Origin: an uncultured Chloroflexia bacterium
GTDB lineage: Bacteria; Chloroflexota; Limnocylindria; Limnocylindrales; CSP1-4
NCBI GenBank assembly: GCA_963720495.1
Contig: CAVRFU010000004.1
Coordinates: 295,900-359,899, forward strand
DNA: 64,000 nt
Reading direction: 5' to 3'
The translations under genes were made by a program, and so were the position numbers. Under the pieces are notes generated by a model, which was not told the DNA's origin, did not search any database, and worked only from the letters and a program-made list of their open reading frames with translations. The first letter of the stretch is position 1. Each line of letters starts with the position of its first letter. Positions 3,837 through 9,949 of the stretch are shown here, piece after piece.

Positions 3837-4613
3837 ATGGCTCCGATCGTCCCGACCCTCCGCCACGAGCGCCGTCTCTGGAACGCGGGGATCGAGCGGG
3901 TCGTCGGCGTCGACGAGGTGGGCGTGGCCCCGACCTGCGGCGCCGTCGTGGCGGCCGCCGTGATCATGCGGCCGGGCTGTCACCGGATCCCCGGCGTCCG
4001 CGACTCCAAGACGCTCTCCGCCGCGCAGCGCGAACGGCTGGCTCCGCTCATCCGGGCGCGGGCGGTGGCCGTCGGGGTCGGAGCCGCGTCCGTGCGCGAG
4101 ATCGACCAGCTCAACATCTATCACGCCACGCACCTGGCCATGCGCCGCGCGATCGCCCGGGTCCGGGGCCACGACCACGTCCTCGTCGACGGCAACCGGA
4201 TCGTCGGGTTCGAGGCGCACGTCGGTCCGTACTCGAACATCGTCGACGGCGACGCCAAGGTCTACTCGATCGCGTGCGCCTCCGTCGTGGCCAAGGTCGT
4301 CCGCGACCGGATGATGAACCGGCTCGCCGCGCGCTATCCCGGCTACGGCTGGGAGCACAACCAGGGCTACGCCACGCTGGAGCATCGGATGGCCATCCGG
4401 GAGCTCGGCCTGACGCCGTTCCACCGCCGGTCGTTCCTCGCCCTCCAGCGGACGCTCGCCGGGGACCAGCTCGAGCTGGACCTCCTGGCCGATCCCGCCG
4501 CCTCCTCCGCCACGCACGAGCTGCTGGCCCGCGAGCTGACCCCGGTCATGGCCGACGACGCGATGCTCGATGCGGCCGACCTCGAGGCCCTGGAGCTCGG
4601 CGTCCTCGCCTGA
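3837..4613 (+). CDS. rnhB: Ribonuclease HII
   Basis: VVGVDEVGVAPTCGAVVAAAV..DSK..S...RE.L...I and the conserved RNase HII core, at full length. Confidence 0.9.
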   Translation: MAPIVPTLRHERRLWNAGIERVVGVDEVGVAPTCGAVVAAAVIMRPGCHRIPGVRDSKTLSAAQRERLAPLIRARAVAVGVGAASVREIDQLNIYHATHLAMRRAIARVRGHDHVLVDGNRIVGFEAHVGPYSNIVDGDAKVYSIACASVVAKVVRDRMMNRLAARYPGYGWEHNQGYATLEHRMAIRELGLTPFHRRSFLALQRTLAGDQLELDLLADPAASSATHELLARELTPVMADDAMLDAADLEALELGVLA

Positions 4614-4651
4614 TACGTCGCGAGATAAGGGTCGCCTGCGACGATGCCGCG

Positions 4652-5050
4652 GTGGCGGACCGACCCGACGACCCGAGGCGGACGGCGGCCCAGCAGGCGG
4701 GTGATGCCGCCGAGACGCTGGTCGCGACACGCCTGGCGGACGCCGGTTGGACCGTCCTGGCCCGGAACGTCCATGTCGGTCGCCACGAGCTGGACCTCGT
4801 GGCGATCGACCCGGGTCCACCGGCCGCGCTCGTGGTCGTGGAGGTCCGCTGGCGCGCAGACCGGGACTTCGGCTTGCCGGAGGAGACCGTCGACCATCGC
4901 AAGCGCGTCCGGGTCCGGGCAGCGGCCTACGGGCTCATCGACCGCGGCACGCTGCCGGACGGAGCGCCGGTCCCGCGCCTGCCGTTGCGGTTCGACCTCG
5001 TCGTCGTCGAGCCCGGCGGGCGCATCCGACACCACCGGCATGCGCTGTAA
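4652..5050 (+). CDS. yraN: YraN/UPF0102 family endonuclease
   Basis: GDAAETLVATRLADAGWTVLARNVHVGRHELDLVAIDPG...LVVVEVRWR is the UPF0102 fold motif. The GTG 4652 start was chosen; the upstream part of the ORF is the shadow of the rnhB 3' end. Confidence 0.75.
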   Translation: MADRPDDPRRTAAQQAGDAAETLVATRLADAGWTVLARNVHVGRHELDLVAIDPGPPAALVVVEVRWRADRDFGLPEETVDHRKRVRVRAAAYGLIDRGTLPDGAPVPRLPLRFDLVVVEPGGRIRHHRHAL

Positions 5051-5202
5051 GGGAGTCGATTCGCGCACGGGCCACTTCACGCGCGATTGCTCCCTGCGTA
5101 GTGGCCTTACCCCTTTTCCTCCGTTCGCCGGACGGGCAATCTGCGGGCCGCCAGCCCCCAGGACGACCTGGCTGTGGCACGACAGCTCGAAAGGGAGCCC
5201 GA

Positions 5203-5955
5203 ATGACGACCATCGATCCGACCAACCAACCCCTGCCGAAGCCACGCCGACGACACGGTCTCGGCGCTGAAGGGATCGAGGCGCTGCGATCACGCCAGGA
5301 CGGCAAGTGCGCCATCTGCCAGAGGCCTGAGACCGATGCACCCGGAGGTCGCCTGGCCGTCGACCACGATCACGCCCACTGCCCCGGCAAGATCGGGTGC
5401 CCGGTCTGCGTCCGCGGTCTCCTCTGCGTGAGCTGCAACAACCTCCTCAGGGCGGCTCGAGACGACCAGCAGGTCCTGCGGGCGGCGATCGAGTACATCG
5501 CCAGTCCGGGAACATCGAAGCCCCGGGTAGAGGATCTGCCGGTCACCGAGCTGCTCCGTCGGCTGCGCCATGACGGCCCGGACCCGCGCCTCATGCCCCG
5601 GCAGGGCCGGCGCGACCGCTTCTTCATGATGTGCCTCGACGCCCCGACCGCGGCCGAAACGGTCGCCGAGGCCGGGTGGATGCTGGACAACGACCCTCAG
5701 GGCTACCGTGACGCGATCCGACGGGCGGACGAGTTCTACGGCGGACCCGGCGGCCTTGACGCCCATCTCGCGAAGGTCCTCCCGCAAGCACCCGACGACA
5801 CGGCCAGCCGAGCCTTCTTCCAGGAGGTGGCCGTCGAACGCGCCAAGCTCGGAATGTCGTCGCCTGGAATGCCGGGCCGCCAAGTGACGCTGGGCGACCT
5901 CAACCGATACTTGCGCGCCAAGGCTCGCAAGGACAAGGAGGCAGCCGGCGGATGA
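5203..5955 (+). CDS. Endonuclease VII (T4 gp49-like, HNH superfamily) domain protein with an uncharacterised ~140-aa C-terminal domain
   Basis: CAICQRPETDAPGGRLAVDHDHAHCPGKIGCPVCVRGLLCVSCNNLL is the Endonuclease_7 Zn-finger/HNH-like motif. ATG 5203 is preceded by AAGGGAG. Confidence 0.7.
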   Translation: MTTIDPTNQPLPKPRRRHGLGAEGIEALRSRQDGKCAICQRPETDAPGGRLAVDHDHAHCPGKIGCPVCVRGLLCVSCNNLLRAARDDQQVLRAAIEYIASPGTSKPRVEDLPVTELLRRLRHDGPDPRLMPRQGRRDRFFMMCLDAPTAAETVAEAGWMLDNDPQGYRDAIRRADEFYGGPGGLDAHLAKVLPQAPDDTASRAFFQEVAVERAKLGMSSPGMPGRQVTLGDLNRYLRAKARKDKEAAGG

Positions 5956-6008
5956 CCGACGCCGGTAAGCGAGCGGCCGATCGCCGTCCGGAGGGCTAGA
6001 TTCTGGTC

Positions 6009-7109
6009 GTGTCCGTCAGTTGGCCCCAGGCCCTCGCATGGCGCATGCGGCGACAGCTCCTGGAACCGATCGGCAGCGAATCGGTCGAGGGGGTCGTGCG
6101 CCGATTGGGGGCAGTCCAGGCCCAGTTCGAAACCGCAACCGAGCTCGCCGTCCGGACAAGACGCCAACGATCCCGGCCGGGCGAGGTCGCTCGTGCCCTG
6201 GCGGACGGGCGGATCATCAAGACGTTCGCCTTTCGAGGCGCGACGCACCTGATGACGCCAGAGGACGGGGGCGTCTACCTGGCTTTGCGGGCAGCCAGTC
6301 GAATGTGGGAGCTCCCGCGCTGGCAGAGCTACTACGGCCTGGCGCCATCCGATTGGCCGCGCCTTCGTGACGTGGTCCGAAAGGCGCTGGCCGACGGGCC
6401 GCTGACGCTGGAAGGGCTTGGCGCGGCGGTCACCACTCGGTCGCAGTTCCGGCATCTGACGTCCGTCTTCGACGGGAACCCCTGGACGCTGCTGAAGGCA
6501 CTTGCCTGGCAGGGAGAGTTCAGCCTCGGACCCCAGGCGGGACGCGCGACGTTTCAGCGCCTGGATCACAACCCTCGCTGGGCGGGAGTGCCTGAGCTCG
6601 ACGAGGCTGGACCGCGTGCCGTGGAGGCCTACTTCCGAGCATACGGACCAGCGACGTCAGACCACGTGCAGTACTGGCTCGGGAACGGCTTGGGCGCCGG
6701 GCGCAAGCGGATCCAGGCCTGGATCGCCGGCTTCGGTGATCGCCTCGCCCCGGTGGACATCGAGGGGGAGACCGCATTCGTCTTGCGCGAGCATCTCGAG
6801 GACCTGGCGGCGACCTCGCCGACCACTGCGATCCGCCTCCTCCCGGGCTACGACCAATGGATCCTCGGTCCGGGCACGTCCGACCCTCAGATCGTTCCGC
6901 CTGCTCGGCGGGCGCTGATCAGCCGCGGGGCCAATGTCGTGATCGATGGCGGAGTCGCGTCCGGGACGTGGACACGGACCCACGACCACATCGCCGTCGA
7001 CTGGTTCGCCGAACGCCGGCCACCCCCAAGGATGAGACTCGCCGACGAGGTAGAGCGGCTCGCCACGATCCTGGATCTGCCCATCCAGCTGTCTGTCCAG
7101 ACCGCATGA
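6009..7109 (+). CDS. Winged-helix HTH_42 protein, AlkZ/YcaQ-like DNA glycosylase family
   Basis: N-terminal RLGAVQAQFETA carries a Q-hydrophobic-Q motif like the AlkZ catalytic motif. The ~366-aa length is typical of the family. Confidence 0.7.
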   Translation: MSVSWPQALAWRMRRQLLEPIGSESVEGVVRRLGAVQAQFETATELAVRTRRQRSRPGEVARALADGRIIKTFAFRGATHLMTPEDGGVYLALRAASRMWELPRWQSYYGLAPSDWPRLRDVVRKALADGPLTLEGLGAAVTTRSQFRHLTSVFDGNPWTLLKALAWQGEFSLGPQAGRATFQRLDHNPRWAGVPELDEAGPRAVEAYFRAYGPATSDHVQYWLGNGLGAGRKRIQAWIAGFGDRLAPVDIEGETAFVLREHLEDLAATSPTTAIRLLPGYDQWILGPGTSDPQIVPPARRALISRGANVVIDGGVASGTWTRTHDHIAVDWFAERRPPPRMRLADEVERLATILDLPIQLSVQTA

Positions 7110-7139
7110 CGAGCCGCCGACCGGGAAAGGAGCCGCATC

Positions 7140-8035
7140 GTGATCCAGCACGCACTGACGGTCCGGACGCCGACGCTCGAGATCGCCTATCGAGCGAGTG
7201 GGCCGGTGGACGGCATCCCTGTCGTGCTGATGCACGGGTTTCCCGATGATCCCGGCGCCTACGACGGGACACTCGACGATCTCGAGGCCCTGGGCTGCCG
7301 GGTGTTCGCTCCCTGGCTGCGTGGCTACGGGCCGACCCGGTTCCTGGATGCGGCGACGCCTCGGTCCGGCCAGCAAGCGGCGCTGGGAGCCGATCTTCTC
7401 GCGTTCATGGACGCCCTGCGACCTCGACAGCGCGGTCCTCGTCGGCTACGACTGGGGCGGGCGGGCCGCCTGCATCGTCGCGGCGCTCTGGCCCGAGCGC
7501 TGCCGCGGCCTCGTCACGGTCGGCGCCTACAACATCCAGGACATCGCGAATGCCGAATCGACCGGCGCCGGTGTCGGAGGAGTATCGATACTGGTACCAG
7601 TGGTACTTCAATACCGAGCGCGGTCGCGCGGGCCTCGAGCAGGACCGGCGCGCCATCTGCAGGTTGCTCTGGCAGCTGTGGTCGCCGACGTGGTCGTTCG
7701 ACGATGAGACGTTCGAACGAGCAGCCGCCAGCTTCGACAATCCCGACTTCGTGGACGTCATCATCCACTCGTACCGTCATCGATACGGGGCGGCCGCCGG
7801 GGACCCGACGCTCGAATGGATCGAGCGGCGCCTCGCCGAGCTGCCTCCGATCGTCGTCTCGACGGTCGTCCTCCACGGCGCCGCGGACGCCGTCACTCCT
7901 CCGACCGACGCGGCAGAGGATGCCGTCCGATTCCTGGGCCCGTTCGAGCGTCACGTCGTCCCGAACGCCGGACATCTGCTGCCACGCGAGGCCCCAGGTT
8001 CCATCGTCGCCGCCATCAAGGCGCTGATCGGCTAG
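7140..8035 (+). CDS. Alpha/beta hydrolase (epoxide-hydrolase/haloalkane-dehalogenase-like HGFPD motif), two +1 frame disruptions
   Basis: VVLMHGFPDDPGAYDG... reads in frame 0, LVGYDWGGRAACIVAALWPERCRGLV in frame 1, and RYWYQWYFNTERG...VLHGAADAVTPP...NAGHLLP in frame 2. Confidence 0.7.
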
Positions 8036-8278
8036 CGATCGCGCTCGGCGACTCGGCGGCCGGCAGCCGGCGGCCACCCGGACCGACCCGTGCTACACTC
8101 CCGCCCGGTCCGGGACCTGATCCCGAGCCGCCAGAACCCATCGCCCGCGCCATCTCGGCGTGGAGCACACACGCGGACCGTTCCCGACCGGGACGGTGCC
8201 GGCCCGGCCACCAGGTGGCCGACCGGTCCCCGGCGACGGCGTCCGCGGAGGAATCGAACCGACAGGAGGTCGCTCACC

Positions 8279-9250
8279 GTGCCGTCCGTATCCATGCGCC
8301 AGCTGCTCGAGGCCGGTGTCCACTTCGGCCACCAGACCCGCCGCTGGAACCCGAAGATGAAGCCATTCATCTTCGCCGAGCGCAACGGGATCCACATCAT
8401 CGACCTGGCCCAGACGGTCCAGCGTCTCGATGTCGCCCTCGAGTTCGTCAGCGAGACCGTCGCGCGCGGCGAGCAGGTCCTGTTCGTCGGGACCAAGAAG
8501 CAGGCCCAGGAGCCGATCGCCCAGGAGGCGACCCGGGCCAACCAGCCGTACGTCAACAAGCGCTGGCTCGGCGGCATGCTCACCAACTTCGTCACGATCA
8601 AGAAGCGGATCGGCCTGCTCGAGCAGCTGGAGGCCCGTCAGGCCAACGGCGACTTCGAGCGGATGACCAAGAAGGAAGCGGCCAAGCTGACCGAGGAGAT
8701 GACCAAGCTCCAGGGCACGCTCGGCGGCATGCGCAAGATGAAGCGCCTGCCCGGCGCCATCTTCATCGTCGACCCGCACCGCGAGCGGATCGGCGTGACC
8801 GAGGCCAACAAGCTCGAGATCCCGGTGGTCGGCACCGGCGACACCAACGTCGACCCGGACGAGCTCGACTTCATCATCCCGGCCAACGACGACGCGATCC
8901 GGGCCATCCGCCTGCTGTGCACGCTGGTCGCCGACGCGGCGATCGAGGGTGCCCGCGAGCGCTCCGCCCGGAGCGCCTCGGAGCCCGAGCAGATCGAGGC
9001 GATGGCGATGCCCGAGGCCGAGGAAGAGGTCCCGGGTGCGACCGACGAGCTCGTCGCCGCCCTCGCCGGCGGGGCCGCGCTCTCGTTCGAACCGGACGCC
9101 GATGACGACGACCTCCTGCCCGGCGACCGCGTCGCCCGCGCCGAGGCTGCCGTCGCCGAGCCGCCCGCCGAGGCCACTCCGGAGGAGATCGCCGCCGAGC
9201 TCGCCCGCGAAGCGGCCGAGAAGGCGGACGATTCGCCCGCGGCGGGCTGA
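8279..9250 (+). CDS. rpsB: 30S ribosomal protein S2 with a ~100-aa acidic Ala/Glu/Pro-rich C-terminal extension
   Basis: [32 protein letters not shown]... GTG 8279 lies 8 nt after GACAGGAGGT. The TGCTACACTCC promoter-like motif sits at 8091-8101. Confidence 0.9.
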
Positions 9251-9353
9251 CCCCGTCATCGACACGCGCCGGCCCAGGCGGGCCGGCCGCACCACCACAC
9301 ACCCACCACAGCGGTCCGGACCGGGCCGCCGCGAGACAGGAGAACGAACAGGC

Positions 9354-9949
<596 letters not shown>

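Follow-up and report, generated by a model that had tools for sequence, protein, structure and literature searches.

In a 64,000-nucleotide stretch of DNA from CSP1-4 (Limnocylindrales, Chloroflexota), taken from contig CAVRFU010000004.1 of assembly GCA_963720495.1 at positions 295,900-359,899 of the forward strand and hereafter called the window, the conserved genes yraN and rpsB are separated by a block that holds a nuclease gene with an Endonuclease VII (EndoVII) motif and, downstream of it, a gene for an AlkZ-like DNA glycosylase. With roughly even confidence, we read the nuclease gene as a free-standing, horizontally moving gene of the homing type, either selfish or semi-domesticated, which sits in an insertion hotspot. 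Its coding sequence and a conserved 5' element together form a self-contained unit of about 0.9 kb, and related Chloroflexota carry this unit by itself, as a single copy per locus, in no fewer than five genomic contexts.

The limits of the unit are apparent when the window is compared with loci in which the gene stands elsewhere (comparison loci are given L numbers). In blastn alignments to L009, L010 and L001, similarity starts at position 5061, which is 11 bp past the yraN stop codon and 142 bp before the ATG, and ends at 5928-5933, near the stop codon of the nuclease gene; no conserved non-coding part of the unit was seen on the 3' side. The commonest context is the interval between hrcA and hemW (L001, L003-L008, L011, L012 and L133), where the unit is divergent from hrcA and lies just past the hrcA TTGACA promoter and CIRCE operator. 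Elsewhere it lies in a uvr-gene region (L009), in a variable region with an rve_3 integrase fragment (L010) and in an unannotated region (L096), while the arrangement yraN, unit, AlkZ-like gene is restricted to the window, L002 and L072. The window itself has no second copy of the nuclease gene, and neither hrcA nor hemW is found elsewhere in it. At the hrcA-hemW loci a perfect CIRCE element, TTAGCACTC-N9-GAGTGCTAA, is placed immediately upstream of the unit (L001, at about 7740-7850, and L003, L011, L012 and L133), and the hrcA promoter beside it has the consensus-like form TTGACAC-N17-TACGAT on the reverse strand. L001 also carries, between the unit and hemW, a gene for a class-I methyltransferase (Methyltransf_23; 8957-9727) that is absent from the other hrcA-hemW loci.

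The site occupied in the window is free of the insertion in relatives that we located through RNase HII, whose RnhB proteins are 95% (L137) and 89% (L138 and L139) identical to that of the window. Their gene order is S16-KH-RimM-TrmD-L19-RnhB-YraN-S2-Tsf-PyrH-Frr, with only 40-90 bp from yraN to the conserved rpsB promoter region. When positions 4600-8500 of the window are aligned to these three loci by blastn, the only matches are at 4608/4624-5039/5048 and at 8048/8084-8500, two blocks that are 40-87 bp apart in the relatives. These empty yraN-rpsB sites bear out the original prediction, made from the letters of the window and its open reading frames (ORFs), which had proposed an insertion after yraN in an rplS-rnhB-yraN neighbourhood. 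The inserted block, of about 3.0 kb and with a G+C content of about 70% in the region, contains the EndoVII unit, the AlkZ-like gene and an alpha/beta-hydrolase gene. In L072, a sister genome assembled from a metagenome (an uncultured 'Chloroflexia'), the nuclease is 91% identical and both the nuclease and AlkZ-like genes are kept, but the hydrolase gene is absent; L138 and L139, in turn, have a DUF2087 gene with an ArsR/MarR-type helix-turn-helix (7817-8470) between rnhB and yraN, which is absent from the window. Because of these differences, unrelated genes can be said to come and go in the rnhB-yraN-rpsB interval, which is an insertion/indel hotspot, and window positions 5051-8047 are a mosaic of three unrelated genes.

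The history of the nuclease also appears to depart from that of its neighbours. Identity to the window protein is 69% for L001, 46% for L003-L008, 42% for L011 and 46% for L012. Between L001 and L012, the flanking products remain close (LepA 92%, Rce1 82%, HemW 78%), whereas the nucleases share 49%; between L003 and L012, from less related hosts, the values are 76% for rce1, 72% for hemW and 61% for the nuclease. At the nucleotide level, L001 and L012 are homologous from dnaK across hrcA as far as the hairpin of the unit; the homology then breaks, reappears as a 175-bp island over the catalytic core and resumes at hemW. Judged by pairwise identities at four loci, a comparison in which fast evolution could mimic incongruence, the divergence of the nuclease does not appear to track that of the flanking host genes.

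The nuclease gene is an intact ORF (5203-5955) for a protein of 250 amino acids (aa), as the original prediction had stated for this gene and for its downstream neighbour. The EndoVII-type, zinc-binding and HNH-like motif that it had placed in the N-terminal part of the protein was recovered by profile searches: PF02945 (Endonuclease_7) scores 66.6 bits, above its cut-off of 23.6, with aa 19-100 covering positions 9-81 of the 82 in the profile, and the 'endonuclease VII' families of PHROG match the N-terminal part with a best value of 1.6e-22. In a hmmsearch, phage T4 EndoVII (1e7d) is found at E=4.7e-4 and Hpy99I more weakly at E=0.36, and hhalign pairs aa 23-81 with T4 EndoVII residues 10-64 at a probability of 94.6%. 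The motif CAICQ...RLAVDHDHAHCPGKIGCPVCVRGLLCVSCNNLL aligns to these same T4 residues. By this alignment the zinc ligands are C36, C39, C75 and C78, accompanied by DHDH at 54-57, R71 and N79, so that all the residues with catalytic and zinc-binding roles in T4 EndoVII and the 'DHHRN' family (PMC6083498) are present; these columns are invariant in 18 homologs. An additional cluster, H59/C60/C66/C69, follows the DHDH. Models made with AF2 have moderate overall confidence (pLDDT of about 71), and a Foldseek search with the AlphaFold model returned T4 EndoVII structures (1e7l and 2qnf) as top matches, the alignment to 1e7l being poor (TM 0.31, rmsd 13.8). The domain is thus predicted to be catalytically complete and of the T4-EndoVII type (DHHRN, beta-beta-alpha-metal/zinc). 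A possible N-terminal extension of the ORF, from 4747, was rejected, as the leaders of homologs differ by indels whose lengths are not divisible by three, and what lies upstream depends on the context. At 267 aa, against 250, the nuclease ORF of L072 is longer and comes within 2 nt of the AlkZ start codon before it stops; the stretch that forms the 53-bp spacer in the window is thus part of the coding sequence in L072.

The rest of the protein, aa 101-250, has no counterpart in Pfam, NCBIfam, PHROG or PADLOC, no sequence match in the PDB, no Foldseek match at E<1 in the PDB or BFVD and no match in viral contigs, in agreement with the earlier view that this region could not be placed. With the profile of this region against T4 gp49, hhalign gives a probability of 0.1% (the N-terminal part of the T4 sequence used agrees with the 1e7d alignment), which shows no relation to the helical C-terminal domain on which the intertwined T4 dimer is built. 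The suspicion that the region might be of low complexity can be dismissed, since AF2 predicts a bundle of six helices with a core pLDDT of 85-90, and 29 columns are invariant in 13 homologs, even though the two subgroups of the family are only 31-36% identical there. The domain has the signature D-P-R-L-x-P-x-x-G-R-R-D-R ... T-x-A-E-x-G-W-M ... R-x-D. The ratio of non-synonymous to synonymous divergence (dN/dS) is 0.22-0.29 in this domain, like that of the N-terminal domain, and 0.17-0.35 over both; thus, both domains are under purifying selection, and the C-terminal one is an orphan domain. When its profile was run against 1.84 billion representative proteins, it returned 12 matches, all of them full-length members or fragments of the same family. 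We count about 22 full-length clusters, all from Chloroflexota metagenome-assembled genomes (MAGs) and soil metagenomes, and NCBI names the members only as 'endonuclease VII domain-containing protein'. Phage records that match the catalytic N-terminal domain alone are 786, mostly from actinophages.

The 5' element of the unit contains an inverted repeat, which the original prediction had missed, together with the promoter-like element that follows it and the third inserted gene, the frameshifted hydrolase gene. The outer stem of this hairpin, GGCCACU/AGUGGCC, is invariant bar one compensated pair; the inner stem and the loop differ among the leaders in both sequence and length, and the half-sites are 22-29 nt apart. 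Every locus that we examined has a single copy of the hairpin, placed upstream of the gene (12/12 of the first loci, and then L072, L096 and L133). A covariance model scores 63-83 bits at 11 distinct true sites, the next best score in 539 kb being 20 bits; 95% of the cells are paired, 7 of the 11 pairs are invariant and 2 show double changes. Scanning the JGI metagenome collection with a strict pattern produced one instance, again upstream of a family member, and the scan of viral contigs produced none. A looser motif scan of the genome collection gave mostly chance matches in GC-rich genomes, with L072 and L096 as the real ones among the matches listed. Searching window positions 4800-6200 against Rfam 15 gave nothing better than E=1.4 or 15 bits.

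Exactly 7 nt past the hairpin, the pattern TT[GT]NNN-N16-18-[CT]A[AG]NNT is found in 10 of 11 leaders, compared with 0.2% of 60-nt segments of the window, a count made on the sequences from which the pattern was derived. In the window this corresponds to a -35-like TTTTCC (5114-5119), a 17-nt spacer and a -10-like CAATCT (5137-5142); A5138 and T5142 are invariant columns, and the leaders of subgroup 2 read TTGnnn-N16-18-TAGGTT. If this bipartite motif is the unit's own promoter, as we read it, the hairpin would lie at roughly -43 to -85. Conservation extends over about 140-156 nt before the start codon, and this leader is non-coding, because its length differences between homologs are not multiples of 3. 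It carries a Shine-Dalgarno sequence 5 nt before the ATG at 5203, which is conserved as GAAAGG(G/A)A in group-1 leaders. Folding of the whole leader is unremarkable (minimum free energy z = -0.51, with an alifold covariation term of about 0), and the first hairpin alone is supported. By eye, the hairpin loop GCUCCCU could pair with the Shine-Dalgarno sequence AGGGAGC, with apparent covariation in L010 and L096; we rejected this pairing, as RNAduplex compared with shuffles gives p=0.18-0.99 for 8 of 9 leaders, and stronger pairing is obtained with other windows of the leader. Outside the window lineage, alternating (CG)n-rich tracts adjoin the unit, just upstream of the hairpin in L010 and L001 and on both sides in L096 (1620-1652 and 2560-2600), where they include the palindrome GTGACGCGCGCGTCAC on the 5' side of the hairpin and CACGCGCGCGCGCACGCGCGCGCG beyond the 3' end of the gene. 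Such tracts may be prone to recombination or may be no more than GC-rich noise. The coordinates of all features are collected in Table 1.

Table 1. Features of the nuclease unit and of the yraN-rpsB interval in the window (strand + unless no orientation applies).
Feature	Position	Strand	Basis
yraN (UPF0102), left flank	4640..5050 (start approximate)	+	PF02021, 64.3 bits; several NCBIfam YraN models
Lineage-specific mosaic insertion, ~3.0 kb, yraN stop to rpsB promoter region	5051..8047	.	blastn vs L137/L138/L139
Self-contained EndoVII gene unit, 5' element and coding sequence, ~0.9 kb	5061..5955	+	blastn vs L009, L010, L001
Inverted repeat/hairpin CACGGGCCAC-TTCACGCGCGATTGCTCCCTGCGT-AGTGGCC	5066..5106	+	conservation, covariance model
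Promoter-like bipartite motif	5114..5142	+	inferred
Shine-Dalgarno sequence AAAGGGAG	5190..5197	+	read from sequence
EndoVII-type catalytic domain, aa 19-100	5257..5502	+	PF02945
Orphan all-helical C-terminal domain, aa 101-250	5503..5952	+	alignment, AF2
AlkZ-like (AZL-type, Q-Phi-Q) HTH_42 DNA glycosylase gene	6009..7109	+	PF06224, 5UUJ
Alpha/beta-hydrolase gene, third part of the insertion, split over three reading frames	7140..8035	+	Pfam pieces
rpsB promoter -10 region GTGCTACACT, right flank	8090..8099	+	identical in window, L072, L137, L139

In the mechanism that we propose, the N-terminal domain would cut DNA, and the C-terminal domain would provide target recognition, dimerisation or both, in place of the C-terminal domain of T4 EndoVII. 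The hairpin would be a cis-acting site that works at the DNA level just upstream of the unit's own promoter, either as an operator for autoregulation or as an insulator against read-through, and something that recognises its sequence would keep it invariant. Sequence-specific recognition is suggested because the hairpin has stayed the same despite saturated synonymous divergence of the gene (dS of about 1.2), and the recognising factor would most simply be the unit's own protein because the hairpin is never found away from the gene. Endonucleases with an EndoVII motif that are encoded in introns or stand free in phage genomes, such as F-CphI, offer a precedent for a homing gene of this kind (PMC6083498). 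It is also conceivable, although we consider it unlikely, that the unit is a minimal mobile element in the full sense: the nuclease, as a structure-specific enzyme, would recognise, through its C-terminal domain, the invariant cruciform-forming repeat at the 5' edge of its own gene, and a cut there or at matching sites would let the ~0.9-kb unit copy itself to new intergenic sites. Such an element needs no transposase, terminal repeats or target duplications, and in a variant of it the leader could be transcribed as an RNA partner of the nuclease.

Several observations weigh against a homing gene. Homing behaviour is deduced here from sequence. Presence or absence of the gene at the conserved yraN-rpsB site, with the sharp boundaries of the unit, fits homing, but the inserted block also holds two other genes. 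The hrcA-hemW position is common to both deep subgroups, at 42-69% identity to the window protein, and because both share it, long vertical residence with occasional relocation fits as well. Proteins with an N-terminal EndoVII motif belong mostly to the 'resolvase' clade and not to the homing clade (Fang et al. 2018, PMC6083498), and neither viral contigs nor phages hold a counterpart of the unit beyond the catalytic domain. The evidence for the hairpin is mostly conservation, with covariation in the 2 of 11 pairs given above, and it fits an RNA hairpin, a DNA cruciform or a protein operator equally. The promoter-like motif fails a strict scan for the sigma-70 consensus, which, like the scan for intrinsic terminators, found none, and its count among the leaders owes something to the way in which the pattern was built. 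Finally, the comparison covers only about 13 distinct loci, and several of them (L002, L009, L010 and L012) come from long-read MAGs with frameshifts.

The second gene of the insertion is the AlkZ-like one. Its ORF (6009-7109, 366 aa) is also intact, and the original prediction of an HTH_42 protein with an N-terminal Q-x-Q motif (AVQAQ), of the AlkZ type, holds: PF06224 gives 135.9 bits (cut-off 25.9) over aa 30-353, and AlkZ (5UUJ) aligns at E=2.1e-63, residues 1-360 with 5-373, so that AVQAQ supplies Q37-A38-Q39 opposite the catalytic VQAQ of AlkZ. AZL proteins are defined by (Q/H)-Phi-Q and YQL proteins by Q-Phi-D (Bradley et al. 2022, PMC9040887); because its motif is Q-A-Q, the product is assigned to the AZL type and not to YQL. 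The public gene call (P0389, 354 aa) starts 12 codons downstream of 6009, but the GTG start at 6009 is supported because the alignment to 5UUJ runs from residue 1. Homologs are numerous, with more than 3,200 at E<=1e-30 and many that are 70-87% identical. Its immediate neighbours in the window are yraN, the nuclease unit, the hydrolase gene and rpsB, and the nearest homologs on long contigs (L134-L136; 87, 82 and 76% identical) stand in three unrelated contexts, none of which has the nuclease or yraN. A genotoxin biosynthetic gene cluster is a typical though not obligatory companion of AZL genes. The clade as a whole (homologs P0121-P0240) keeps an identity of 70-87% in Chloroflexota and in several Actinomycetota (Micromonosporaceae, Trebonia and Nocardioidaceae), in a different context each time, and a Q-Phi-Q glycosylase may therefore have spread horizontally, outside biosynthetic clusters, in recent times. 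By these comparisons, the gene is best described as that of an ordinary AZL-type glycosylase, which adds a member to a known family and is carried in the insertion as an independent passenger.

What, then, could explain the nuclease unit other than homing? The main rival is a lineage-specific cellular nuclease of recombination or repair, a resolvase of Holliday junctions or other branched DNA, inherited vertically at hrcA-hemW and occasionally relocated by rearrangement; its C-terminal domain would serve in dimerisation or DNA binding, as a module that replaces the one of T4, and the hairpin would be the control site of a host regulator. We regard this as possible but rather unlikely. The N-terminal position of the catalytic domain, as in T4 EndoVII and its 'resolvase clade' (PMC6083498), the profile that lies nearer to T4 EndoVII than to Hpy99I, the single copy per locus, the purifying selection on both domains, the hrcA-adjacent position kept in both subgroups and a full protein without viral counterpart would all suit a resolvase. 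However, close relatives do without the nuclease at the yraN site, the unit occupies at least five contexts with sharp boundaries, and divergence of the nuclease, judged by pairwise identities, appears incongruent with that of the flanking host genes and much faster. Moreover, a family with 12 matches among 1.84 billion representatives is tiny, which would be unusual for a core repair function, and a hairpin that never occurs away from the gene leaves a host regulon unsupported. Another proposal, in which the 5' element would act as an RNA, whether as a cis-regulatory leader or as a non-coding partner for the nuclease, and not as a DNA site, draws on a hairpin that is kept at variable loop length, unlike a dimer operator with fixed spacing, on compensatory changes in two pairs and on the length of the leader conserved before the start codon. 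It also appears unlikely to us, as the promoter-like element is downstream of the hairpin, which may consequently fall outside the unit's transcript, no Rfam family matches, the folding energy is ordinary with almost no covariation term, and the complementarity of the loop to the Shine-Dalgarno sequence is no better than in shuffles.

The original prediction had favoured neither of two further ideas, a two-gene cassette for DNA damage or defence and a mobile-element remnant. Under the former, nuclease and glycosylase would work together on interstrand crosslinks, in the processing of other DNA damage, or in defence. In the window the two genes point the same way with 53 bp between them, both encode proteins that act on DNA, the nuclease ORF of L072 extends to the AlkZ start, and the adjacency is kept in three related genomes. 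Nonetheless, we judge such a functional pair to be very unlikely: only a single shallow lineage (the window, L002 and L072) shows the adjacency, and the genes are not adjacent in L001, L003-L012, L096 and L133 or in L134-L136, the check on co-occurrence thus speaking against the cassette. At seven other distinct loci AlkZ is missing beside the nuclease, the nearest AlkZ homologs occur without it, the nuclease brings its own upstream control element to every context, and neither protein matches a PADLOC 2.0 family at E<=1. Functional coupling of the two genes is not needed to explain the locus. As for the latter idea, the mobile part comes closer to our reading, while the word remnant does not fit an intact unit on which purifying selection acts. 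A small defence islet with a nuclease directed against phages, or of a restriction-like kind, could be imagined in a variable insertion hotspot, particularly as restriction enzymes with an EndoVII motif exist (Hpy99I), but no methylase or other partner gene accompanies it in any context, housekeeping genes are its neighbours at most loci and PADLOC is silent here as well; we hold this to be very improbable. Homing of a free-standing nuclease gene remains the reading that we prefer.

Around the two genes, the remainder of the insertion and its flanks can be described briefly. Upstream of yraN are rplS (L19; PF01245) and then rnhB (RNase HII), and on the other side rpsB was identified by PF00318 (316 bits). 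The hydrolase gene is present in pieces, with Abhydrolase_1 positions 2-69 in ORF 7140-8027 and 68-109 in ORF 7246-7707, and Abhydrolase_6 positions 118-215 in ORF 7550-8035; it carries a GYDWGG nucleophile elbow and is either a pseudogene or split by a long-read assembly error. We also considered a transposon or insertion sequence and rejected it: Pfam finds no transposase domain in the window proteins, searches around the unit and the 3-kb block for terminal inverted or direct repeats, a target-site duplication and a tRNA-like or att-site duplication gave chance-level repeats only, and the hairpin is at one end only. An imperfect 12-nt direct repeat that was seen by eye flanks the nuclease unit (AGGGAGTCGATTC at 5045-5060 and AGGGCTAGATTC at 5985-6000); in L072 both copies have AATTC and not GATTC. 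The repeat may be left over from the spacer that originally separated yraN and AlkZ, or may have arisen by chance.

Should the homing reading be right, the unit would be a free-standing EndoVII-type (DHHRN) gene on a chromosome, in neither a phage nor an intron, that moves between intergenic sites beside housekeeping genes. Such a gene, with its invariant control hairpin and a domain for which about 15 billion proteins offer no relatives, would extend a family of homing endonucleases known almost only from phages. Studies of specificity would also gain a nuclease of small size whose recognition module is new. For annotation, the locus also carries a lesson, in that neighbours with a look of DNA repair, when they are found in an insertion hotspot, are not proof of a repair cassette.

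The known systems nearest to these proteins are well separated by their architecture and their setting. With phage T4 endonuclease VII (gp49; 1e7d, 1en7 and 2qnc), the window nuclease shares the core CX2C...DHDH...R...CX2C-N and its zinc ligands, D54, H55, H57, R71 and N79 corresponding to D40, H41, H43, R54 and N62 of T4. The C-terminal dimerisation and DNA-binding domain of the phage enzyme is absent from it and an unrelated helical domain of 150 aa takes its place; unlike T4 EndoVII, it also has the extra H/C cluster after the DHDH and is encoded by a gene of Chloroflexota chromosomes. F-CphI and the other 'DHHRN' homing endonucleases, as well as the free-standing EndoVII/HNH genes of phages and actinophages (PMC6083498), likewise join an EndoVII motif to an unrelated second domain, and the free-standing phage genes resemble the window gene further in lying between conserved genes with a patchy presence. 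In contrast, the window nuclease has its motif at the N-terminus, F-CphI and the majority of the 'endonuclease clade' have theirs at the C-terminus (PMC6083498), and the unit is on a bacterial chromosome, without an intron or phage context and with a conserved upstream hairpin and promoter-like element, its homing being a matter of interpretation. The product of 6009-7109, for its part, is alike over its full length to AlkZ of Streptomyces sahachiroi (5UUJ) and the AZL subfamily (PMC9040887), with Q-Phi-Q at the same positions, 37-39, although its gene, judged by its immediate neighbours, is between housekeeping genes and not in a recognised biosynthetic cluster. The conservation of its clade across Chloroflexota and Actinomycetota is unusual as well, since AZL proteins of Streptomyces are described as diverse (PMC9040887). 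Escherichia coli YcaQ (YQL) belongs to the same HTH_42 superfamily and probably shares its chemistry (PMC9040887), but the YQL motif is Q-Phi-D, where the window protein has Q-A-Q.

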